From sequence record OZ035741.1: a stretch of 64,000 bases of DNA. The stretch is one strand, 5' to 3'. Of the stretch, positions 52,889 through 63,585 are shown in pieces. Position 1 is the first letter of the stretch; every line of letters starts with the position of its first letter. This stretch comes from Felixounavirus LF82P2. The notes under the pieces are model-generated. The model did not search any database and was not told the origin of the DNA. It worked only from the letters and a program-made list of their open reading frames with translations. The position numbers and the translations under genes were made by a program.

Positions 52889-52916
52889 AAATAAAAAAGG
52901 CTCCCGAAGGAGCCTA
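52889..52916 (-). terminator. rho-independent terminator (minus strand)
   Basis: Reverse complement AGGCTCC-TTCG-GGAGCCTTTTTTATTTT downstream of lysozyme gene. Confidence 0.5.
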
Positions 52917-52924
52917 TGAAGATA

Positions 52925-53389
52925 TTACTTTGGATATACACTGTCAAGATAAATGTCAGCTTCCATTCTACGTCTGTTTTTCAGGCCGTTTGAAGTGACT
53001 TTCTGACCTTTGACTGTAACCTTGTTCCACCACTGCATAGCCTCTGCACAACCTACCTTATTACCAGCGTTGTGGCGCTTGATAAATGTGGAATCCTGCA
53101 TAGCTGTGATACCAATGTTGTATGTTTCACTTACAAGTGCGTCAAACTCATTCTGAGAAGTTGGAACCTTGATGGCTTTGTTCACTGCTGCAACGAACTT
53201 TTCAACATCTGCGAGAAGATACTGTTCAGCTTGTTCAGCGGTAATCTTCATACCCATCTTAACAGGTTTACCAGCAATACGGATAGTCCCGTACCCAATT
53301 GTTGGGATTCCAGCAGAATCTTCGTAAGCCTCTAGCTTAAGACCTTCAAAGAACTTAATAGCTTCTAAACCTTTTCTTGAGAGTTGCAT
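52925..53389 (-). CDS. lysozyme (T4 e-like, GH24 endolysin)
   Basis: N-terminal LEAIKFFEGLKLEAYEDSAGIPTIGYGT matches catalytic Glu/Asp/Thr region of T4-type lysozymes. Confidence 0.75.
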   Translation of the reverse strand: MQLSRKGLEAIKFFEGLKLEAYEDSAGIPTIGYGTIRIAGKPVKMGMKITAEQAEQYLLADVEKFVAAVNKAIKVPTSQNEFDALVSETYNIGITAMQDSTFIKRHNAGNKVGCAEAMQWWNKVTVKGQKVTSNGLKNRRRMEADIYLDSVYPK

Positions 53390-54522
53390 TATGCCTCCCC
53401 TGCTGGGTTAACAGTAACTGTTGCTGCATTAGATGTTACAGAACCACCTGCACCAGTAACTACACAGGTGTAGCTTCCTGCATCAGCAGCGGTTGCACCT
53501 TCTTTGGTGTAAGTTGCAGTAGTTGCATCGAGGATGTCTTCCTCACCTTTCTTCCACTGGTAACCTGTCGCACCTGTTGCCACAACATTCAGCGTTAAGG
53601 TATCACCTTCAGTGATTTCTTGATTGGTTGGCTGTTGAGTGATTACTGGAAGTGCATTCACAGTTACTACAGCAGCATTAGATTCCACTACACCACCTGC
53701 ACCTGTTACAACGCAAGTGTATGAACCAGCATCTGCTGGCAGCGCACCAGACTTGCTATAGGTAGCATCTGTAGCCGAAGGAATGTCAGAGCCATCTTTC
53801 TTCCACTGGTAGCCTGTTGCACCTGTTGCAGTCACTTCCAAGTTAATGCTTTCACCCTCATTGATGGTCTGGCTAGAAGGTTGCTGTGTAATCACAGGCA
53901 GTGCGTTGACAGTAACTGTTGCCGCATCTGAGGTAACACTTGTCCCAGCCTCTCCAGACACAACACAAGTATAGGAACCAGCATCAGAAGGTGCTACAGA
54001 CTGTTTTGTGTAGGTTGCAGATGTGGCGCTAGTGATATCCTCACCATTCTTTTTCCATTGATATCCAGTGGCATTAGTTGCAATAACGCTTAGGGTAAGT
54101 GTGCCACCTTCATTTACTGTTTGGTTGGTTGGTTGCTGAGTGATTGATGGTGGCTTGATAGCATCCTTCAGCTTAGCATTCAACATTGAGAATGGCTTAA
54201 CTCTTGCCAACCATTCACAATAAACTGTATCAACGTCTTTACCATTGATAATTGCATATTGTAAGTCCATGAAGAAGTCAGAAGTTCTCATTTGAGCGCC
54301 GATGCTGTAAAGCAACTCATCACTAAATGGGACTTTATAGTCGGGTTTGTAGTCAAACTTCTCAACTTCTGCAATATCAGCTTCAGGCCAATATGAACTA
54401 TAGGTAAGTGGTAAAATAGCCTCTTGATATGTTCTAAAATCATATCTCTTACCAGCCTTTACATTTGCAATGAAACCCTTCACAAACTCTTTGAAGTCTG
54501 GGTAAGTCTTTGCTTTAATCAT
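53389..54522 (-). CDS. virion-associated protein with three Ig-like repeats (putative)
   Basis: Three tandem ~90 aa repeats each containing GATGYQWKK..DAGSYTCVV (Ig-like); N-terminal domain paralogous to 54519-54890. Confidence 0.5.
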   Translation of the reverse strand: MIKAKTYPDFKEFVKGFIANVKAGKRYDFRTYQEAILPLTYSSYWPEADIAEVEKFDYKPDYKVPFSDELLYSIGAQMRTSDFFMDLQYAIINGKDVDTVYCEWLARVKPFSMLNAKLKDAIKPPSITQQPTNQTVNEGGTLTLSVIATNATGYQWKKNGEDITSATSATYTKQSVAPSDAGSYTCVVSGEAGTSVTSDAATVTVNALPVITQQPSSQTINEGESINLEVTATGATGYQWKKDGSDIPSATDATYSKSGALPADAGSYTCVVTGAGGVVESNAAVVTVNALPVITQQPTNQEITEGDTLTLNVVATGATGYQWKKGEEDILDATTATYTKEGATAADAGSYTCVVTGAGGSVTSNAATVTVNPAGEA

Positions 54523-54890
54523 TTCTTTTTAGCCTCTAAATGTGCGTTTAGTCTAAAATAACCTTTGTGATGCGGAGATACATCACCAACAACAATACCT
54601 TTAACCTTATAGCCTTTACCAATTACATACTGGATATCCATAAGGAATCTTCCAAGACCAACAATATGGAACATTGGATATAATAGATTCTCAGAATCTG
54701 GAATATTGATTTCAGGTTTGTAGGTGCGTTGTTCGCTTGTTGGTGTAATATCTTCTTCAGGCCATTTACTGAGTCTCCATGTCAAAGGTGTTGGGATAAC
54801 ATCATTAAGGTTGTACCTTTCACCATTTTGCACGGAATTGATATAGGATTGTAGGAAGCAATAAAAGTCTTTTGCACTCTTAGCTTTCAT
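54519..54890 (-). CDS. hypothetical protein, paralog of N-terminal domain of Ig-repeat protein
   Basis: Shares FxxFxxxYIxxVxxGxRY and MDxQYxI motifs with 53389-54522 N-terminus. Confidence 0.4.
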   Translation of the reverse strand: MKAKSAKDFYCFLQSYINSVQNGERYNLNDVIPTPLTWRLSKWPEEDITPTSEQRTYKPEINIPDSENLLYPMFHIVGLGRFLMDIQYVIGKGYKVKGIVVGDVSPHHKGYFRLNAHLEAKKK

Positions 54891-54937
54891 TAAATATCCT
54901 TATAAATAGTTAAAGGGGCATCAGCCCCTATTCACAC

Positions 54938-55528
54938 TTAAGCTTTGGTCTTAAGTAGGTTCTTAAGTTTTTTAAGATTCATACTCTCATCAAACTTAAA
55001 ACCAAATCCATTGACATAATCAATGAACTCGGATTTCTTACTGAGTGACAATGCGTAACTCATATCAAAGTTCTTACTTGTTTCTGCGTCTGGACTAGAG
55101 TTCACATCAAATGAAATTTCTGTAGGCTCTTGCTTACTTTTCCTCATATTATCAACCAACAAACATGTATAGTTTGCTGGATAGAAGTTTACACTACCAT
55201 CAACGTAGCTGTACTTATTATTATGGATAAGGTTGGAAAATACCTTAAGGAATGTTTCTGAGTCGTGGCAAACAAGTTTGAATTGGCTGCTCTCTCCAAG
55301 CGCAACTAATGAGTACGGACTTTCACTATCAAAGTCATAATTTGGATTCGATGCCGTCACTGTTACACGCATCAAGTTATTAGCAATAGTCTTCTGTTTA
55401 AAAGAATTTTGAACATAGTGAAGACCTCTATCACACTGATTGACTAGCTCTTTAAGTAGGTCATTTGCATATGGTGAATTAATTGATACAGAGCCATCAC
55501 TATTGTAATTAAAACTTACTGTTAACAT
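54938..55528 (-). CDS. hypothetical protein
   Basis: 196 aa ORF. Confidence 0.4.
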   Translation of the reverse strand: MLTVSFNYNSDGSVSINSPYANDLLKELVNQCDRGLHYVQNSFKQKTIANNLMRVTVTASNPNYDFDSESPYSLVALGESSQFKLVCHDSETFLKVFSNLIHNNKYSYVDGSVNFYPANYTCLLVDNMRKSKQEPTEISFDVNSSPDAETSKNFDMSYALSLSKKSEFIDYVNGFGFKFDESMNLKKLKNLLKTKA

Positions 55529-56600: not shown

Positions 56601-58016
56601 ATGAGCGAATTATTTAAACATGCGCACCTTCATGCAGGTCGAACTGAAAATGGTGCTGTAAACCATACTTCATCAATGTCTGCTCTTGTAGACTTTTACA
56701 AAGCTGCTGGTTCAAGCCGTAGCAATGTAGAAATCTTACCAGACCTGTTCTACAAAGCTTTGCGTGAGGATGTTGATGTTGCAGTTCGTATTTTACTGCA
56801 TATGCGAGATGTACGAGAAGGTATGGGTGAGCGTAAAGCCTTCAGAACTGTTTTGCTTCAAGCAATTGAAGATAAAGTTTTAGAGCCTACACAGGTTCTT
56901 CGCATTATGGATAAGATTGCAGAACTTGGTCGTTTTGATGACTTCAAAATCTTCGTAGGTACTCGTTTCGAGACAGATGCCTTCAAACATTTAGAAGCAG
57001 CATTACTAGACCCTGCAACAGCAGGTTTGGCAGCTAAGTGGTTACCACGAGTAAAACCACGTCACAAACAGTTTGTAAAACGTTTCTGCAAGTTTGCAAA
57101 CTTGAGTGAGAAGGAGTATCGCACACTGTTATCTGCACTGTCTGATACGGTTGAGCAAAAAATCTCTGCTAATGAGTTTGGTAAGATTGACTACAGTAAG
57201 ATTCCTTCACTTGCTGCTGCACGTTACCAAAAACTCTTTAACCGTAAAGATGGAGAACGCTACAAAGCTTACATTGAGTCCTTATCAAAGGGCGAGACTA
57301 AGATTAATGCTGGTGCTGTTTATCCATACGATGTGATTAAATCTGTTAAGTATGGTAATGCAGATGTTGCTAATGAGCAGTGGAAAGCACTACCAAACTG
57401 GATGGCAGAGGGTGAAAACATTCTATGTATGTCTGATGTTTCAAGTTCAATGTCTTGGGTGAATTTTGGTTCAATTACTGCTCTTGATATTGGTGTTTCA
57501 CTTGCATTGTATGTAGCAGAACGTAATACAGGTTGCTTTAAGAATGAGTTGATGGTTTATTCAACAAACCCTCACTTCATTGAACTGAGTGGTGATTTAC
57601 GAAACCGTCATCGTCAGGTGATGCGACACGTTGAATATGGCTCAACTAACTTACAAGCAGCTTTTGACCGTATTCTTGAGACAGGTAAAAGAAACAACTT
57701 GACTCAGAAAGATATGCCAAGTAAGCTTATCATCTTCTCCGATATGGAGTTCAATCAGGTTGATGGAGCTAACGGTCGTACAAACTTTGAAGCAATTCAG
57801 AGTAAGTACAAAAAAGCTGGATATGAGATGCCACAACTGGTATTCTGGTACTTAGCAAACCGTAATGGTACTTGCGAAGTATCTGTTAAGGATAACGGTG
57901 TAGCAATGGTATCAGGGTTCTCTCCAGCCACTTTAAAAGCTCTGCTTGGTGGTGAGAAGTTTGACCCAATCAGTGTAATGCTCAAAGCAGTAATGATTGA
58001 CCGTTATATCTGGTAA
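56601..58016 (+). CDS. von Willebrand factor A (vWA) domain protein
   Basis: 471 aa; MIDAS-like DVSSSMS (DxSxS) near residue 280 followed by Rossmann-like pattern; helical N-terminal domain. Confidence 0.4.
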   Translation: MSELFKHAHLHAGRTENGAVNHTSSMSALVDFYKAAGSSRSNVEILPDLFYKALREDVDVAVRILLHMRDVREGMGERKAFRTVLLQAIEDKVLEPTQVLRIMDKIAELGRFDDFKIFVGTRFETDAFKHLEAALLDPATAGLAAKWLPRVKPRHKQFVKRFCKFANLSEKEYRTLLSALSDTVEQKISANEFGKIDYSKIPSLAAARYQKLFNRKDGERYKAYIESLSKGETKINAGAVYPYDVIKSVKYGNADVANEQWKALPNWMAEGENILCMSDVSSSMSWVNFGSITALDIGVSLALYVAERNTGCFKNELMVYSTNPHFIELSGDLRNRHRQVMRHVEYGSTNLQAAFDRILETGKRNNLTQKDMPSKLIIFSDMEFNQVDGANGRTNFEAIQSKYKKAGYEMPQLVFWYLANRNGTCEVSVKDNGVAMVSGFSPATLKALLGGEKFDPISVMLKAVMIDRYIW

Positions 58017-58171: not shown

Positions 58172-58248
58172 AAAAGTTTATCTCTGTTTAGCTCAGCTTG
58201 GTAGAGCGTTCCGTTTGGGGCGGTAAGGCCGGAGGTTCAAGTCCTCCA
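58172..58248 (+). tRNA. tRNA-Pro (anticodon TGG)
   Basis: 7 bp acceptor stem, T-loop GGTTCAAGTCC, anticodon loop TTTGGGG, encoded CCA. Confidence 0.7.
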
Positions 58249-58265
58249 ACAGAGACCAAATTAAT

Positions 58266-58343
58266 GTTCCAGTAGACAAAATGGTATAGTCACCACTCTT
58301 TCAAAGTGGACATCTGAGGGTTCAAATCCCTTCTGGAACGCCA
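58266..58343 (+). tRNA. tRNA-Glu (anticodon TTC)
   Basis: Acceptor GTTCCAG/CTGGAAC, anticodon stem CCACT/AGTGG, loop CTTTCAA. Confidence 0.65.
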
Positions 58344-58434
58344 GTTTTGACAGAAGACCAAATACAGCAAACTTAATCTTATTCATCTGAAGGTAAATCG
58401 GACAAAGAAGAGATTTGGTCTGGTCATTAAGAAT

Positions 58435-58511
58435 TGCGGGTATAGAGAAAGGGCGTCTCACATGTCTCATTAGCATGGTATCGGCAGGTTCGACTCCTGC
58501 ACCCGCCTCCA
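58435..58511 (+). tRNA. tRNA-Met (anticodon CAT), atypical (T at position 37, mismatch at pair 1-72)
   Basis: Anticodon stem CATGT/GCATG, loop CTCATTA, T-loop GGTTCGACTCC. Confidence 0.5.
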
Positions 58512-58594
58512 AATTTACAGAAGACCGTTTACAGCAACATTTATTAAATTTTTAGCGGAAAAATTGAAAGATACGGTCTGGTAATACTAAACAT

Positions 58595-58671
58595 GGTTAG
58601 GAAGCACATAAGGTATGTGCGGTCGCCTGTTAAGCGAATGGCACAGGGTTCGAATCCCTGACTAACCGCCA
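58595..58671 (+). tRNA. tRNA-Asn (anticodon GTT)
   Basis: Anticodon loop CTGTTAA; T-loop GGGTTCGAATCCC; CCA encoded. Confidence 0.65.
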
Positions 58672-58740
58672 AATTTAGGAGAGAAGCGATTGCTCACCGA
58701 TTTGTAAGGTGCAAGTCCTTAGCCTGAATAGAAATTAAAT

Positions 58741-58828
58741 GTGTCGTTATCCCGTAGATGGTAGCGGTGGGGACTGTAAATCCCTTGTCATTGAGACTCG
58801 GTAGGTTCGACTCCTACACGGCACACCA
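58741..58828 (+). tRNA. tRNA-Tyr (anticodon GTA), long variable arm
   Basis: Acceptor GTGTCGT/ACGGCAC, anticodon stem GGGGA/TCCCT loop CTGTAAA, 88 nt. Confidence 0.7.
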
Positions 58829-58833
58829 ATAAA

Positions 58834-58911
58834 GGTTATGTAGTTTAATTTGGTTAAAATACTCCCCTGTCACGGGAGATGATGAGGGTTCAAATCCCTT
58901 CGTAACCGCCA
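58834..58911 (+). tRNA. tRNA-Asp (anticodon GTC)
   Basis: Acceptor GGTTATG/CGTAACC, anticodon stem CTCCC/GGGAG loop CTGTCAC. Confidence 0.7.
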
Positions 58912-59081
58912 ATTTTGAGAGGGCTATTTAGCCCCTCCCTTAAAGGGTTCTTACGAGTATCCTTTAAAGGAGCAGAAGACCAAATACAGCAAGTTACTTA
59001 AAATTTCAAGCCAATTTAATTTTGAAAAATTTAAAACTTGGTCTGGCTCAACAAATTTACAGAAGACCGTTTACAGCAAAA

Positions 59082-59178
59082 CTTAAACAATCTATTTCTC
59101 GGTAAAGAAAAGGCGAAGGTTCGATTCCTTCACTCGGCAGATGTCGAGTTGGTGTAATGGTAGCACTTAAGATGATAA
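59082..59178 (+). pseudogene. tRNA halves in permuted order (3' half upstream of 5' half); possible circularly permuted tRNA or rearranged pseudogene
   Basis: 3' part 59082-59139 (CTTAA, variable-arm hairpin, T-arm GAAGG-TTCGATT-CCTTC, acceptor ACTCGGC) then 5' part 59143-59178 (acceptor GTCGAGT, D-arm, TTAAG, loop ATGATAA). Confidence 0.35.
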
Positions 59179-59339
59179 ACAACGGTCTGGTAATTATCTT
59201 TGTAGATAAGTTATTAAGCTTACCTGTGAGTATGCGACCACAAAGGGTGAAAGGGTAAATTCTAGATTTAAACCCAAAAAGGCACATCGCTACAGACCTT
59301 AAGCAAGTCTGGGTAGCTTATCTACAAAGATAATTTAAT

Positions 59340-59415
59340 GGAAGTGTAGCAGAATGGTGATGCGGCAGACTTTTAATCTGACAGGCGATGGGTTCGAATC
59401 CCTCCACTTCTACCA
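59340..59415 (+). tRNA. tRNA-Lys (anticodon TTT)
   Basis: Acceptor GGAAGTG/CACTTCT, anticodon loop CTTTTAA, T-loop GGGTTCGAATCCC. Confidence 0.65.
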
Positions 59416-59419
59416 ATAT

Positions 59420-59496
59420 GGTTCAGTCGCAGATAAGGTAATGCAAGGGTCTCATAAGCCCTATGAATGTGGGTTCGAATCCCATCTGAACCTCCA
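59420..59496 (+). tRNA. tRNA-Met (anticodon CAT), GGG/CCC anticodon stem (initiator-like feature)
   Basis: Anticodon arm AGGGT-CTCATAA-GCCCT; acceptor GGTTCAG/CTGAACC fully paired. Confidence 0.65.
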
Positions 59497-59498
59497 AT

Positions 59499-59573
59499 TG
59501 TGGGTTAGCATAAATGGTAATGCAAACGGCTGATAACCGTTAGAAGAGGGTTCGATACCCTCACCTACAACCA
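59499..59573 (+). tRNA. tRNA-Ile (anticodon GAT)
   Basis: Anticodon arm AACGG-CTGATAA-CCGTT; T-loop GGGTTCGATACCC. Confidence 0.7.
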
Positions 59574-59591
59574 AGTTCAATAAAGTTGTTG

Positions 59592-59620
59592 ACATTGAGA
59601 TGTGACTACTTTATAGTAAC
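59592..59620 (+). promoter_or_regulatory. sigma70-like promoter inside tRNA cluster (TTGACA-17-TATAGT)
   Basis: Consensus -35 and good -10 in spacer after tRNA-Ile. Confidence 0.45.
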
Positions 59621-59821
59621 CTTAGTTTTCGTTGCGTAGCGTCTATTTTGCAAATTTAAAATAAATGCAAACGACAATGTTTTTCTGGCAGTAGCTTGAT
59701 AGGCTAAACACCAGTGAGGTCTTCCAATCCCTCATCAAAGAATTTGGCGTACTCGCCCACGGTATGATTAATAAGGTGGGCATCTTTAAGGGCTTTCTAA
59801 GAGAGTCTTTAAAGATAATTA

Positions 59822-59903
59822 CGGGGCGTATCTCAGCGGTCTTCTAAACCGCCGTTAACCGAGTAAGTGGAGTATGCGGGTTCGAGTCCTGCCGCCTCGA
59901 CCA
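59822..59903 (+). tRNA. atypical tRNA-like gene (possible Arg, anticodon TCT), non-canonical arm arrangement
   Basis: Acceptor CGGGGCG/CGCCTCG plus T-arm GCGGG-TTCGAGT-CCTGC and CCA; perfect hairpin GCGGT-CTTCTAA-ACCGC sits where the D-arm should be. Confidence 0.4.
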
Positions 59904-60046
59904 ATTTAGTTAGCAGATTACTTAGACGACCTAAGCGGGTCTTCCTGTAGGGAGGTGGTCTGTATCTCATGTTTTCCAGAACATGTAAATAATCTGAGAA
60001 GGGGCTTTACAGTGTTGAGATAATACGGTAAGCTTCGAATTATAGT

Positions 60047-60129
60047 ATGGGACGATGTTAAGACTCTAAGGCATGAGCAACGGCCTCCAAAACCGTTTCA
60101 AAGGGGTTCAACTCCTCCGTCCCATGCCA
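60047..60129 (+). tRNA. tRNA-Trp (anticodon CCA), enlarged D region (83 nt)
   Basis: Perfect acceptor ATGGGAC/GTCCCAT, anticodon arm ACGGC-CTCCAAA-ACCGT, T-loop GGGGTTCAACTCC. Confidence 0.5.
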
Positions 60130-60142
60130 AAGTCTTATTAGG

Positions 60143-60230
60143 GGTAGGTAGCGGCTAATGGCAGCCAAACAGTCTTGAAAACTGTTGCCACTGTAGAGAT
60201 ACGGTGAGGGTTCGACTCCTTTACTTACCG
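60143..60230 (+). tRNA. tRNA-Ser (anticodon TGA), long variable arm, CCA not encoded
   Basis: Anticodon arm ACAGT-CTTGAAA-ACTGT; long variable arm; T-loop GGGTTCGACTCC. Confidence 0.65.
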
Positions 60231-60488
60231 CCTAATAAGATTTTTAAAGCCAAGCTTCATTCGGATGTTGCTTTGGTATCCCTCGTGTATTGTCGTACAC
60301 ACTGATAAAACACCTAGTAGGTGTCACGGAGAAGAGATAATATCAAGCTCTCCAAAGGTTCTAGTCACCGGATTAAACAAGACTATGCAAAGACCTTTTA
60401 GGTCTTTTTAGAGGGCTTCTAAGGTTATTACAGCTTGTTGTGGAACCTTGTTGCTTAGGTTCTTAGAAGTTCTCTAAAAAGATTTAAT

Positions 60489-60566
60489 GGGAGATTGACG
60501 GTAATTGGTAAACCTATCTCGCTTAGAACGAGATGTTTGAGGGTTCGAATCCCTTGTCTCCTACCA
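60489..60566 (+). tRNA. tRNA-Leu (anticodon TAG) with short variable loop
   Basis: Anticodon arm TCTCG-CTTAGAA-CGAGA perfect; discriminator A; T-loop GGGTTCGAATCCC. Confidence 0.55.
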
Positions 60567-60573
60567 AATTAAT

Positions 60574-60649
60574 GCAGGTGTAGCAAAATGGTTATGCGGC
60601 TGACTCTTAATCAGTAAGACGATGGGTTCAATTCCCTCCACCTGTACCA
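60574..60649 (+). tRNA. tRNA-Lys (anticodon CTT)
   Basis: Scaffold similar to tRNA-Lys(TTT); anticodon arm GCTGA-CTCTTAA-TCAGT. Confidence 0.55.
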
Positions 60650-60655
60650 AACAAT

Positions 60656-60731
60656 GGGGTCATAGTTTATATGGTTAAAATTCGAGTTTTGCAAACTTGG
60701 GAACTGAGTTCAATTCTCAGTGACTCCACCA
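60656..60731 (+). tRNA. tRNA-Ala (anticodon TGC)
   Basis: Acceptor GGGGTCA/TGACTCC with G3-T70 wobble; anticodon loop TTTGCAA. Confidence 0.65.
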
Positions 60732-60737
60732 ATTAGT

Positions 60738-60812
60738 GCATCCATAGTTTAAACGGGAAAATTACAGTCTTCCAAACTGAGGTTGAGGGTTCGATTCCCT
60801 CTGGATGCTCCA
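60738..60812 (+). tRNA. tRNA-Gly (anticodon TCC)
   Basis: Acceptor GCATCCA/TGGATGC; anticodon arm ACAGT-CTTCCAA-ACTGA. Confidence 0.65.
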
Positions 60813-60826
60813 AATTAAGGTGTGAT

Positions 60827-61240
60827 ATGAAAATATGCAGTACTTGCAGAATACCAAAAGATGAAAGCTTATTCCATAAGAATAAGAACAAGAAAGACGG
60901 TCTTCAAAGTCAATGCAAAGATTGTGCAAGACTCCGTGATGCAAAGAGTTATCAAGCAAATGATAAAAGGAAAGAGGCTATTAAAAGCACTCGTAACTTC
61001 AAGAGAGAGCATAACAAGACTCTAGCTAGAAGGTACAAAGCTTTATGCAAATGTCATATATGTGGTGAGAAAGAACCAGTTGCACTGGATTTACACCATA
61101 CAGACCCTTCCCAGAAAGATTTGAATCCTGCATCACTTTATTCATACTCCACAAAAAGATTAAAAGATGAAATCAGAAAGTGCATTGTCTTGTGCGCTAA
61201 CTGTCACAGAAAAGTACATGCTGGTATCATAAAAGTTTAA
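60827..61240 (+). CDS. HNH endonuclease embedded in tRNA cluster
   Basis: Cys-rich N-terminus and C-terminal DLHHTD..CANCHRKVH HNH motif. Confidence 0.6.
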   Translation: MKICSTCRIPKDESLFHKNKNKKDGLQSQCKDCARLRDAKSYQANDKRKEAIKSTRNFKREHNKTLARRYKALCKCHICGEKEPVALDLHHTDPSQKDLNPASLYSYSTKRLKDEIRKCIVLCANCHRKVHAGIIKV

Positions 61241-61241
61241 T

Positions 61242-61318
61242 GCTGCTTTCGTATAATTGGCTATTACACATCCCTTGTAAGGATGGAAATGCAGGTTCGA
61301 GTCCTGTGAGCAGCACCA
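61242..61318 (+). tRNA. tRNA-Thr (anticodon TGT)
   Basis: Anticodon arm CATCC-CTTGTAA-GGATG; T-loop GGTTCGAGTCC. Confidence 0.7.
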
Positions 61319-61413
61319 ATTCAGAGGTCAAGTGAAAGACCGCTGGTGTCAACTGAAGACCGTAACAAATTCCACGGAGTTGAGTTAGCGGCACAACTTC
61401 AGACCTCTTTCAT

Positions 61414-61488
61414 ACTCGCTTAGTTTATATGGTAAAACATCACCCTTACAAGATGAAGAAAAAGGTTCAAGTCCTTTAGTGAGTACCA
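61414..61488 (+). tRNA. tRNA-Val (anticodon TAC), one mismatch in anticodon stem
   Basis: Acceptor ACTCGCT/AGTGAGT; anticodon arm TCACC-CTTACAA-GATGA (C-A mismatch). Confidence 0.5.
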
Positions 61489-61489
61489 T

Positions 61490-61567
61490 GTTCCAGTATC
61501 CCAATTGGCAGAGGATGCAAGCTCAAACCTTGTACTAGTGACGGTTCGAATCCGTCTTGGAACACCA
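61490..61567 (+). tRNA. tRNA-Leu (anticodon CAA) with short variable loop
   Basis: Anticodon arm GCAAG-CTCAAAC-CTTGT; discriminator A; T-loop GGTTCGAATCC. Confidence 0.55.
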
Positions 61568-61572
61568 ATTTT

Positions 61573-61648
61573 GCAGGATTAGTTCAAATGGATAGAGCAA
61601 CAGTCTACGAAGCTGTTAATAGGGGTTCGAATCCCTTATCCTGCGCCA
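61573..61648 (+). tRNA. tRNA-Arg (anticodon ACG)
   Basis: Acceptor GCAGGAT/ATCCTGC; anticodon arm ACAGT-CTACGAA-GCTGT. Confidence 0.7.
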
Positions 61649-61667
61649 ATTTAAAGAGGCTATTTAG

Positions 61668-62225
61668 ATGAGATATTTGAAGTATGCTTCATGGATTTTC
61701 TTAGCTTTGTTAGAACCATTTGCAGCAATCTTAGCAGTTATCTTAGCACCTTTTGTAGTTCCATTTTACAGTGAGAAGAAAGGACACTTACCTTTCGGAT
61801 TTAGATGGATGGAAACTTATGACAACCCAATTGATGGTGATGAAGGTCACGTTAAAAGATGGGCTAATATTAGATGGATTGGTAAGCTTGGTGTCTATAT
61901 GCAGAGAGTCGGTTGGCTCTGGAGAAACAAAGCTTATAACTTCTCTTACCATGTGTTAGGAAGAGATGTAAAAGATGTTACTAAGTGGAAAGGTAATATC
62001 AACGTAAGTTCTAACCCTGAAGATAATCAGACAGGTTATCTCCTAATGTGGAACAGCAATGCTTGGGGATTATTCGCTTTTATACCATCAATTAAAATCT
62101 TTGGTAAACAGTTCTACTGGAGAATTTATATTGGGTGGAAGCTAAAAAGTGTTGTCCCAGAAGAAAGAGCATTCTCAAGGGAAAGAGTTATGTTGGCATT
62201 CTTTATTCATCCACTAAGAAATTAA
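61668..62225 (+). CDS. hypothetical membrane protein embedded in tRNA cluster
   Basis: 185 aa; hydrophobic N-terminal segment, Trp-rich. Confidence 0.4.
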   Translation: MRYLKYASWIFLALLEPFAAILAVILAPFVVPFYSEKKGHLPFGFRWMETYDNPIDGDEGHVKRWANIRWIGKLGVYMQRVGWLWRNKAYNFSYHVLGRDVKDVTKWKGNINVSSNPEDNQTGYLLMWNSNAWGLFAFIPSIKIFGKQFYWRIYIGWKLKSVVPEERAFSRERVMLAFFIHPLRN

Positions 62226-62233
62226 AGATTTAA

Positions 62234-62309
62234 AGGGGATTAGTTTACAAGGTTAAAACCTCGGTCTTTGAAATCGAAGAAGTTGGTTCAATTCCAACAT
62301 CCCCCGCCA
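62234..62309 (+). tRNA. tRNA-Gln (anticodon TTG)
   Basis: Anticodon arm TCGGT-CTTTGAA-ATCGA; T-loop GGTTCAATTCC; pair 1-72 mismatched. Confidence 0.6.
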
Positions 62310-62311
62310 AT

Positions 62312-62390
62312 GCTCCATTACTCCAATTGGCAGAGAGGCCAGACTTAAAATCTGTGTTATGTATCGGTTCGAATCCGATATGGAGTACCA
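62312..62390 (+). tRNA. tRNA-Leu (anticodon TAA) with intermediate-length variable region
   Basis: Anticodon loop CTTAAAA; discriminator A; D region similar to tRNA at 61490. Confidence 0.5.
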
Positions 62391-62395
62391 AATTT

Positions 62396-62471
62396 AGCGG
62401 TATAGCATAACTGGCAATGCAACAGTCTCTGAAGCTGTCTTATTAAGGTTCAAATCCTTATGCCGCTGCCA
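62396..62471 (+). tRNA. tRNA-Gln (anticodon CTG)
   Basis: Anticodon arm ACAGT-CTCTGAA-GCTGT; T-loop GGTTCAAATCC. Confidence 0.55.
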
Positions 62472-62502
62472 CTTCTAAGGGTTCTTACGAGAGTCCTTAA
62501 AT

Positions 62503-62578
62503 GTGGCCTTATCATAAATGGTAATGACCCATGCTGTGAACATGGTCTATACGGGTTCAAATCCCGTAGGTCACCCCA
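62503..62578 (+). tRNA. tRNA-His (anticodon GTG)
   Basis: Anticodon arm CCATG-CTGTGAA-CATGG; discriminator C. Confidence 0.7.
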
Positions 62579-62583
62579 ATTTA

Positions 62584-62660
62584 TAGTCCAAGTAGCTTAT
62601 ATGGTTAAAGCGCGTGTCTGAAAAACATGAGAAGAGGGTTCAAATCCCACTGGACTACCA
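62584..62660 (+). tRNA. tRNA-Phe (anticodon GAA)
   Basis: Acceptor TAGTCCA/TGGACTA; anticodon loop CTGAAAA. Confidence 0.6.
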
Positions 62661-62676
62661 ATTTCAAAGGTGCTTA

Positions 62677-63411
62677 ATGAAAGAGATGACAGAACAAGGT
62701 AAGGAGATTTTTAATCTCTTAAAAACCGGTAAAGGGTTTTCTAACCCACTTATTACTGGTGCAGCAGTTCTCGGTGGAACCGTAGCTGCTTCTACATCAC
62801 TTGTAAGCTCTATTAGTTCTGTAACAGACCCTACAATGCAGGAGAAACTTGTTGCTGCTGGACTTACAACAGTCCTTCTAAACAGCTTTACAACAAGCCT
62901 TACAAGCACTACAGCAACTACTAAGACCCTGACAGACTACGGTCAAAAATCTATTGATGAGTTTTCATCACGTATGCAGGTAGCAAAGGGATATTCCAAT
63001 GTTATGGGTGCAGCAGGAGAACAAGTTGGTTGTACACCGTTCAGTGGTATTATGGGTGTTGCTACAGAATATGGTCAAAAAGCTATTGATACGATTAACA
63101 GTACACTAGAGAGTGTTAACAATGTATTAAGTGACTTACAAGACGCTATTGACAAGGGTCTTGATACTGTTTCTGATTTAGCTAACCAAGCTGTCAGTAA
63201 GATTAATGAAGGTATCTCAAAGATTACAGCTTATGCAGATGAAGTTGTGCAGATGATTGAAGAAGAATCTGCCCTTATTGCAGAGTACCTTAAAACGAAT
63301 ATCAATGGGTTCTTAGCAGGTATCTTACCAGACTGGTTTGATGATGCCTGTAAAACTGGTGTAATTGACACTATTGCAACACCAGAAATGAAGAACGCAT
63401 TACAGAAATAA
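62677..63411 (+). CDS. hypothetical protein embedded in tRNA cluster
   Basis: Track ORF 62614-63411 overlaps tRNA-Phe; start moved to ATG 62677 after AAAGG RBS; Thr/Ser-rich then helical. Confidence 0.45.
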   Translation: MKEMTEQGKEIFNLLKTGKGFSNPLITGAAVLGGTVAASTSLVSSISSVTDPTMQEKLVAAGLTTVLLNSFTTSLTSTTATTKTLTDYGQKSIDEFSSRMQVAKGYSNVMGAAGEQVGCTPFSGIMGVATEYGQKAIDTINSTLESVNNVLSDLQDAIDKGLDTVSDLANQAVSKINEGISKITAYADEVVQMIEEESALIAEYLKTNINGFLAGILPDWFDDACKTGVIDTIATPEMKNALQK

Positions 63412-63412
63412 T

Positions 63413-63505
63413 GGAAGATTAACCCTAAAAGGTAAGGGAGCAGTTTGCTAAACTGACAGTAGCTGAGAAATCGGTGTACCAGTTCAAGTCTGGTATCTTC
63501 CTCCA
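63413..63505 (+). tRNA. tRNA-Ser (anticodon GCT), long variable arm
   Basis: Perfect acceptor GGAAGAT/ATCTTCC; anticodon loop TTGCTAA; 93 nt. Confidence 0.65.
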
Positions 63506-63509
63506 ATTT

Positions 63510-63585
63510 GAATCCGTGACAGAAATGGCTATGTGCCTGTCTGCAAAACAGGTTTATAAGGGTTCGAGTCCCTTCGGATTCTCCA
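63510..63585 (+). tRNA. tRNA-Cys (anticodon GCA)
   Basis: Acceptor GAATCCG/CGGATTC; anticodon arm CCTGT-CTGCAAA-ACAGG. Confidence 0.7.

Follow-up and report, generated by a model that had tools for sequence, protein, structure and literature searches.

Ig-bearing decoration of Felix O1-like capsids

In the capsid of Escherichia phage Bas63 (Felixounavirus; Protein Data Bank (PDB) entry 9NCF), cryo-electron microscopy (cryo-EM) showed one monomer of a protein named Hex-Dec in the middle of each of 60 hexamers, out of 80 in the T=9 lattice; its capsid-binding domain (CapBD) comprises lobes L1 and L2 and has pseudo-two-fold symmetry, and its immunoglobulin (Ig) domains, unresolved in the map, are predicted to extend outward (PMC12609058). 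In Shigella phage Sf14 (Mooglevirus; capsid entry 9C2D), gp20 is present once per asymmetric unit, on pentamer-proximal hexamers only, and was detected in virion mass spectrometry; its N-terminal 118 amino acids (aa) are held in place by salt bridges that Arg79 and Arg107 make with Asp221 on three capsid-protein subunits, and the capsomer centre is Asp-lined (PMC11821841). The remaining 20 hexamers are without density in both cryo-EM studies, and both papers propose, by analogy with T4 Hoc, that the Ig domains serve adhesion or aggregation (PMC12609058, PMC11821841). The Felix O1 ortholog, Gp36 (ORF36, beside the lysin ORF35), was among the best-covered virion proteins (31.6 kDa, 44% coverage) and was labelled a tail protein at the time (PMC3185647). 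The structure and capsid location of Hex-Dec, published in 2025, are thus already known and are not a new finding here. We examined a locus of this kind in a 64,000-nucleotide (nt) stretch of Felixounavirus LF82P2 (sequence record OZ035741.1; hereafter the window), in which the gene for a 377-aa Ig-repeat protein is preceded by a 123-aa gene. The paralogy of this upstream gene to the CapBD, the loss of its anchor residues, its age and a natural deletion clade were not met in the literature searched and are a modest addition to a known system.

In this Felix O1-like myophage the locus comprises three late genes in one cassette, which encode, in order, the CapBD paralog, Hex-Dec and an endolysin. 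It is 100% identical to that of Felixounavirus LF82P1 and 95–97% identical to those of ~200 Felix O1-like phages. The overall explanation that we favour, at a probability of roughly 0.8, combines a capsid decoration, Hex-Dec, with an accessory paralog of its binding domain that lacks the anchor. The features on which the comparison rests are as follows.

54519–54890, minus strand: open reading frame (ORF) of the CapBD-only paralog, 123 aa, phrog_4463, isoelectric point (pI) 9.1
53389–54522, minus strand: ORF of Hex-Dec, 377 aa, phrog_3995 (expect value (E) 4e-209)
54157–54522, minus strand: CapBD, Hex-Dec aa 1–122, with Arg79 and Arg107
53899–54150, minus strand: Ig-like repeat 1, Hex-Dec aa 125–208 (Pfam Ig_3, best stretch aa 124–189)
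53650–53898, minus strand: Ig-like repeat 2, Hex-Dec aa 209–291 (Pfam I-set, aa 209–285)
53401–53649, minus strand: Ig-like repeat 3, Hex-Dec aa 292–374 (Pfam Ig_2, aa 292–371)
52925–53389, minus strand: GH24 endolysin, 154 aa (Pfam Phage_lysozyme, E 9e-41), last gene of the cassette

The 377-aa protein corresponds to Hex-Dec

When compared with the sequences in the PDB, the 377-aa protein matched chain S of 9NCF (E 2.5e-297) and chain S of 9C2D/9C3A (E 4.8e-168). Its residues 1–122 are identical to those of Bas63 Hex-Dec at 121 of 122 positions, the modelled chains being 122 (9ncf_S) and 120 (9c2d_S) residues long, and it has both Arg79 and Arg107, which are invariant in 27/27 Hex-Dec sequences. 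Judged by this homology, the ORF almost certainly encodes the ortholog of Bas63 Hex-Dec and Sf14 gp20, a capsid decoration protein. A preliminary description of this DNA, made from its letters without database searches, had suggested a surface-exposed virion decoration or adhesin module; for the 377-aa protein the decoration reading is borne out, because the orthologs were placed on the capsid surface by cryo-EM and virion mass spectrometry, and Felix O1 Gp36 was found in virions. Neither an absence from virions nor a non-Ig fold was encountered for this protein. The GenBank label 'tail protein' for Hex-Dec is wrong, and the correction of this widespread label is of practical value.

The same description had read the ORF as three tandem Ig-like repeats behind an N-terminal domain, and coordinates, repeats and Pfam matches all agree with it. 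All three repeats close with DAGSYTCVV, and the motif GATGYQWKK of repeats 2 and 3 reads NATGYQWKK in repeat 1. Pfam returned three stretches each for Ig_3 (E 4e-34), I-set (E 5e-27) and Ig_2 (E 2e-25). Structure prediction also yielded an Ig fold: the AlphaFold2 model of the region has beta-sandwich strands with a predicted local distance difference test score (pLDDT) of ~95, and Foldseek matched it to solved tandem I-set arrays (titin I67–I69, Robo1, LRIG1; E ~1e-20). The three repeats share 67–70% pairwise identity as protein and 60–66% as DNA. A DNA-level tandem repeat of the Ig units was considered and rejected; Tandem Repeats Finder reported no repeat in the Ig region because the units are too diverged in DNA at this level of identity. 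The length of Hex-Dec varies across 26 related loci (210–211, 294–298, 377 or 461 aa) with the number of Ig domains, from one to four, a range on which the Bas63 paper agrees (PMC12609058). From the likeness to T4 Hoc, we infer that the Hex-Dec Ig array may act in adhesion. As a separate observation, the Ig repeats (53392–54150) matched the grappling-hook protein GhpA of Aureispira (PDB 9FLP; E 8.4e-76, 10 stretches) far more closely than animal Ig proteins, a sequence likeness that hints at exchange of this Ig repeat type between phages and bacteria.

Bas63 Hex-Dec and Sf14 gp20 share with the present protein Arg79 and Arg107, the I-set Ig repeats and a gene position beside the endolysin gene and far from the head genes; Bas63 Hex-Dec has four Ig domains, in contrast to three here, and both phages also carry an adjacent CapBD-only paralog (gp21 in Sf14). 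T4 Hoc is likewise a monomer at hexamer centres that joins a small globular capsid-binding domain to a string of Ig-like domains, is non-essential, and has been proposed to act in adhesion or environment-sensing. However, its capsid-binding domain is C-terminal, whereas the CapBD is N-terminal and is described in the Bas63 paper as larger, of distinct topology and with pseudo-two-fold symmetry (PMC12609058); the 'Hoc-like head decoration' families of PHROG match the Ig region alone (aa 121–290). Given the reversed domain order and the Ig-only PHROG matches, we regard Hex-Dec as Hoc-like in its working and not as a member of the Hoc family. We met no free CapBD paralog of T4 Hoc in the literature searched. 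The Ig domain of T5 pb10 (PDB 5LXK, 8ZVI) matches Hex-Dec repeat 2 (E 2.6e-12), but pb10 has a single Ig domain, the match is limited to aa 215–290, and its capsid-binding domain is without sequence match to the CapBD. Finally, the 'tail protein' gp008 of Kolesnikvirus (Erwinia phage M7/phiEa21-4 group) has a homologous CapBD (~36% identity), which keeps Arg79 and has Lys in place of Arg107, encoded directly upstream of the endolysin; unlike Hex-Dec, it carries a Big_2 bacterial Ig-like domain instead of I-set domains and is not accompanied by a small paralog.

The 123-aa protein is a complete CapBD without Ig domains

The preliminary description had also named the 123-aa gene a repeat-less paralog of the N-terminal domain. 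BLASTP aligned the two at 37% identity over 101 aa (E 5e-17), and in a 26-sequence alignment the paralog spans the whole N-terminal domain, ending where the linker to Ig repeat 1 begins, with 20–25 columns invariant across the paralog and Hex-Dec families. Against the structures, phmmer gave E 1.2e-11 for 9ncf_S and 5.2e-11 for 9c2d_S. These same two chains were the only significant PDB matches of the AlphaFold2 model of the paralog (template-modelling score 0.69, probability 1.00), a model with pLDDT 73 and predicted template-modelling score 0.73. The extent of the paralog equals that of the modelled capsid-bound CapBD chains, and no outward display domain (Ig, Big_2 or other) is attached to it. 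Its PHROG family (phrog_4463, E 3e-80) is listed there as of unknown function, and no match was found in Pfam, NCBIfam or PADLOC. The protein is basic (pI 9.1, net charge ~+4) in contrast to the mildly acidic CapBD (pI 5.5). We conclude that the ORF is a real gene for a full-length, Ig-less paralog with the CapBD fold. The equivalents are Sf14 gp21, Felix O1 ORF37 and VpaE1 gp40. In the published literature we found no paper treating this protein, and the Bas63 and Sf14 structure papers and the Sf14 supplement are silent on it.

Of 252 phage records with a member of the family (Felixounavirus, Mooglevirus), ~232 have an intact paralog, at a constant 122–124 aa. A profile search of 1.84 billion representative proteins returned 13 clusters only; the CapBD family is therefore narrow. 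One of the clusters, P0097, is 45% identical to the paralog and lies in an 87-kb metagenomic contig with the gene order 195-aa gene, paralog, 298-aa Hex-Dec, lysozyme; there, too, the paralog overlaps the Hex-Dec start. In another lineage, P0103, the single CapBD protein carries a tail rich in Lys and Ser and lacks Ig domains. The paralogs formed their own deep clade in a neighbour-joining tree, and because this clade is about as deep as the split between the Felixounavirus and Kolesnikvirus CapBDs, the duplication is old. Of the 'truncated duplicate' in the preliminary description, therefore, the duplicate stands and the truncation does not, since the protein is a complete N-terminal domain of an old, separate lineage and not a recent truncation. 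Two database records are labelled unexpectedly: GU169904.1, 'Staphylococcus phage SA1', shows 99% identity to the paralog in a locus of Felix O1-like type, and PV390658.1, phage vB_EcoM_P54, is an 88-kb Felix O1-like genome under a Tequatrovirus taxonomy line.

Selection and a natural deletion

The ratio of nonsynonymous to synonymous substitution rates (dN/dS, Nei-Gojobori) had a median of 0.12 for the paralog (363 pairs, synonymous divergence dS ~0.7), against 0.04 for the Hex-Dec CapBD, 0.11 for Ig repeat 1 and 0.07 for the lysin. The value for the paralog shows that purifying selection acts on the protein over its full extent.

One allele of the paralog combines loss of the start codon with a 226-nt deletion and is shared, with identical breakpoints, by 19 phage records. 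These include REP5-12, Tf, mio, SP116, Z31, P54 and fBSPA4, from at least the USA, Denmark, China, India, Spain and Egypt. The shared breakpoints in all 19 losses indicate one event and not recurrent decay. The Hex-Dec ORF was intact (210 or 293–294 aa) in 9 of the 10 deletion records examined. In Shigella phage Z31 (locus L003, 2498–3070), where the paralog is deleted, Hex-Dec is annotated in two pieces of 134 and 55 aa, which may reflect a frameshift, a truncation or a sequencing error. A viable clade of 19 records with this deletion shows that the paralog is dispensable for growth and not needed for the maintenance of Hex-Dec.

The dispensability of the gene might be taken as a hint that the small ORF is a decaying relic, retained since its 3' end carries the Hex-Dec ribosome-binding site, with its translation aiding Hex-Dec expression. 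A conserved Shine-Dalgarno-like motif for Hex-Dec, TTAGAGG, indeed sits within the last codons of the paralog, the 19 deletion records retain exactly this 3' segment, and the paralog evolves faster than the CapBD. However, the low dN/dS at substantial synonymous divergence, an ORF kept intact and constant in length in most records and in a lineage only 45% identical, and the single origin of all 19 losses are hard to reconcile with decay, and we consider the relic explanation very improbable.

Anchor residues are lost and the paralog is missing from virion lists

At the position of Hex-Dec Arg79 (76 in paralog numbering), all 29 paralogs examined (29/29) have Gly. At the position of Arg107 (105 in the paralog) they have Gln (13), His (12), Asn (2), Lys (1) or Arg (1). 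The Arg79 to Gly replacement is among nine class-specific invariant substitutions in the paralogs.

The Felix O1 virion proteome, obtained from gel bands and whole-particle shotgun analysis, contains proteins down to 9.7–13.7 kDa and does not list ORF37 (PMC3185647). For VpaE1, the published text counts 22 virion proteins and gives only gp54, gp58 and gp68 as additions to the Felix O1 set; gp40 therefore appears not to have been detected. The wV8 proteome paper identifies the tail fibre only. The paralog is predicted to yield seven well-sized tryptic peptides (for example FLMDIQYVIGK, YNLNDVIPTPLTWR, GIVVGDVSPHHK and WPEEDITPTSEQR), and neither its size nor its sequence therefore explains its absence from the virion lists. 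The idea, implicit in the preliminary description, that the small paralog is a second virion component is not supported by the Felix O1 list, the VpaE1 text and the loss of the two anchoring arginines; the paralog is probably not a stable virion component.

One alternative is that the paralog is a second, Ig-less decoration of the mature virion: it could fill the 20 three-fold hexamers, or compete for the 60 Hex-Dec sites and so vary the number of Ig fibres. The paralog keeps the complete CapBD fold, exactly the capsid-ordered part, and is co-expressed with Hex-Dec through an ATGA in which the paralog stop and the Hex-Dec start overlap, as in Felixounavirus and Mooglevirus generally; the P0103 lineage has an Ig-less CapBD protein as the sole family member, and a basic protein suits the Asp-lined capsomer centre. 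A monomer on an icosahedral three-fold axis, moreover, would be smeared by symmetry averaging. However, proteins as small as 9.7–13.7 kDa were found in the Felix O1 virion without the paralog, which, going by the VpaE1 text, is also missing from the virion of that phage; both cryo-EM studies are without density on the other hexamers, with the Hex-Dec sequence built into strong density at the 60 sites, and the anchoring arginines are gone in all or nearly all paralogs. We judge a second decoration of this kind improbable.

We also considered a frameshift fusion of the paralog with Hex-Dec (CapBD-CapBD-Ig) at the sequence GCT AAA AAG AAA TGA (54505–54525, minus strand), where a slip on AAA AAG would lead into the Hex-Dec frame, which is −1 to that of the paralog. 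The motif was judged fortuitous because it is absent in Mooglevirus-type loci (GCTAAGAAATGA, GCTAATAAATGA), in the related locus L036 and in two Felixounavirus loci. That no paralog peptides have been reported from virions also counts against such a fusion.

A possible accessory role in decoration

We propose the following mechanism. By homology with the solved structures, the CapBD of Hex-Dec, a monomer, should plug the central opening of each hexamer next to a pentamer (60 per T=9 capsid), where Arg79 and Arg107 would form the salt bridges reported for Sf14, with Asp221 in the major capsid protein as their partner. Its three I-set Ig domains are predicted to form a flexible fibre pointing outward, which by analogy with T4 Hoc may provide weak adhesion to surfaces, glycans or other particles and would not be needed for capsid assembly. 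The paralog, translationally coupled to Hex-Dec and maintained by purifying selection, is a free-standing copy of the whole CapBD that has lost both anchoring arginines and become basic. It may bind acidic hexamer centres weakly or transiently, on free capsomers, on unexpanded proheads or at the 20 three-fold hexamers, and would in that case be a dispensable modulator of decoration and not itself a decoration. A pI of 9.1 and the Asp-lined capsomer centre of Sf14 are consistent with residual capsomer affinity. These two last steps are of different strength. That the paralog is a weak or transient capsomer-centre binder outside the mature Hex-Dec site is our leading, but tentative, suggestion for its specific role; that it acts as a regulator on proheads or three-fold hexamers, helping to set where or when Hex-Dec binds (for example the 60-of-80 pattern), is more speculative still and on balance unlikely.

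A target other than the capsid is a serious, if doubtful, alternative. The paralog might be a soluble late protein inside the cell that binds Hex-Dec or some other partner, for instance an escort guarding the CapBD against premature binding or aggregation, or might have an unrelated role in the cell. Its deep separate clade, the nine class-specific invariant substitutions and the reversal of charge fit a new target, as does its absence from the Felix O1 proteome and, going by the text, from that of VpaE1; close coupling of translation is characteristic of proteins with a joint function. However, the blank searches of Pfam, NCBIfam and PADLOC point to no specific partner, and the 20 residues invariant between the two families are in keeping with conservation of the fold and possibly of contacts. 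An escort that Hex-Dec cannot do without is unlikely, as Hex-Dec persists intact in Kolesnikvirus, where no paralog is seen, and in all but one (Z31, where it is split) of the deletion-clade members examined; an obligatory Hex-Dec chaperone was set aside as weakened on the same grounds. A lysis role suggested by the adjacent endolysin was also rejected: no Pfam, NCBIfam or PADLOC match, holins included, and no hydrophobic stretch was seen in the paralog, and the annotated holin of the related Kolesnikvirus lies three genes further along.

Several points weigh against the proposal of Hex-Dec decoration with an anchorless accessory paralog. The deletion clade with intact Hex-Dec weakens any obligatory role of the paralog as regulator as well as chaperone. 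Absence from proteomes is negative evidence: the Felix O1 data date from 2010 and were filtered by stringent criteria, the VpaE1 absence is deduced from running text, and the Sf14 mass spectrometry table may hold only proteins judged structural. Loss of the arginines disfavours the same binding mode, yet it equally allows a non-capsid target. The structural models are also limited. AlphaFold2, given a shallow, near-identical alignment, modelled the CapBD of Hex-Dec with a pLDDT of only 33–50 beside ~95 for the Ig domains (the Sf14 authors likewise found that the AlphaFold CapBD did not reflect the density; PMC11821841), and the model of the paralog is of moderate confidence. Adhesion by the Ig domains rests on the Hoc analogy across Ounavirinae, and the role proposed for the paralog is assigned from sequence.

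In the literature searched we met no such accessory factor for any Hoc-like decoration system. If the paralog does modulate decoration, it would offer a simple, genetically tractable handle on how Hoc-like proteins choose hexamers, of relevance to phage display and to vaccine scaffolds in which antigens are grafted onto such domains. The natural paralog-deletion strains mio, SP116 and REP5-12 are available for comparison.

Organization of the cassette and neighbouring genes

Two further elements flank the three genes.

52898–52915, minus strand: strong intrinsic terminator 3' of the endolysin gene, a hairpin with a 7-bp stem (5 G-C pairs) followed by a T-run, TTTTTTATTTT
54915–54928, minus strand: GGGGC-N4-GCCCC hairpin separating the 196-aa gene from the paralog, with a short T-run and an AAGGA ribosome-binding site after it

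The upstream hairpin is retained, with stem and loop variants, in 27/27 related loci and in L036, and the wV8 record has terminators annotated at the equivalents of both elements, the one at 54915–54928 as rho-independent. The 25-nt gap before the cassette has no room for a sigma-70-like promoter, and a conserved motif resembling a late promoter was not seen there. Within the cassette, Hex-Dec and endolysin meet at a TAATG junction in which stop and start share 1 nt. All of 27 IMG/VR loci have the paralog, Hex-Dec and lysin genes in this order, with the first two overlapping by 4 nt (or 8 nt), and the Hex-Dec/endolysin adjacency is kept in 25 loci and also in Kolesnikvirus and other lineages. 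The gene for the major capsid protein, sought for a comparison of the interface, is not in the 64-kb window.

Directly upstream of the paralog (54938–55528, minus strand) lies a gene for a 196-aa protein (phrog_4034) without match in Pfam, NCBIfam, PADLOC or the PDB. In Felixounavirus, Mooglevirus and Kolesnikvirus (gp009), as in L036 (195 aa) and a further locus, L038 (185 aa), a gene of the phrog_4034 type immediately precedes the CapBD gene or genes. At 56601–58016 (plus strand) is a gene for a 471-aa DUF2828/DUF7788 protein (phrog_850, 'RNA-binding protein'; vWFA in some records), which also keeps its place next to the Hex-Dec cassette in Mooglevirus and in the distant P0103 lineage. In the window it stands directly upstream of an array of 25 transfer RNA genes (58182–63585, plus strand) that covers most amino acids and is typical for Felix O1-like phages.

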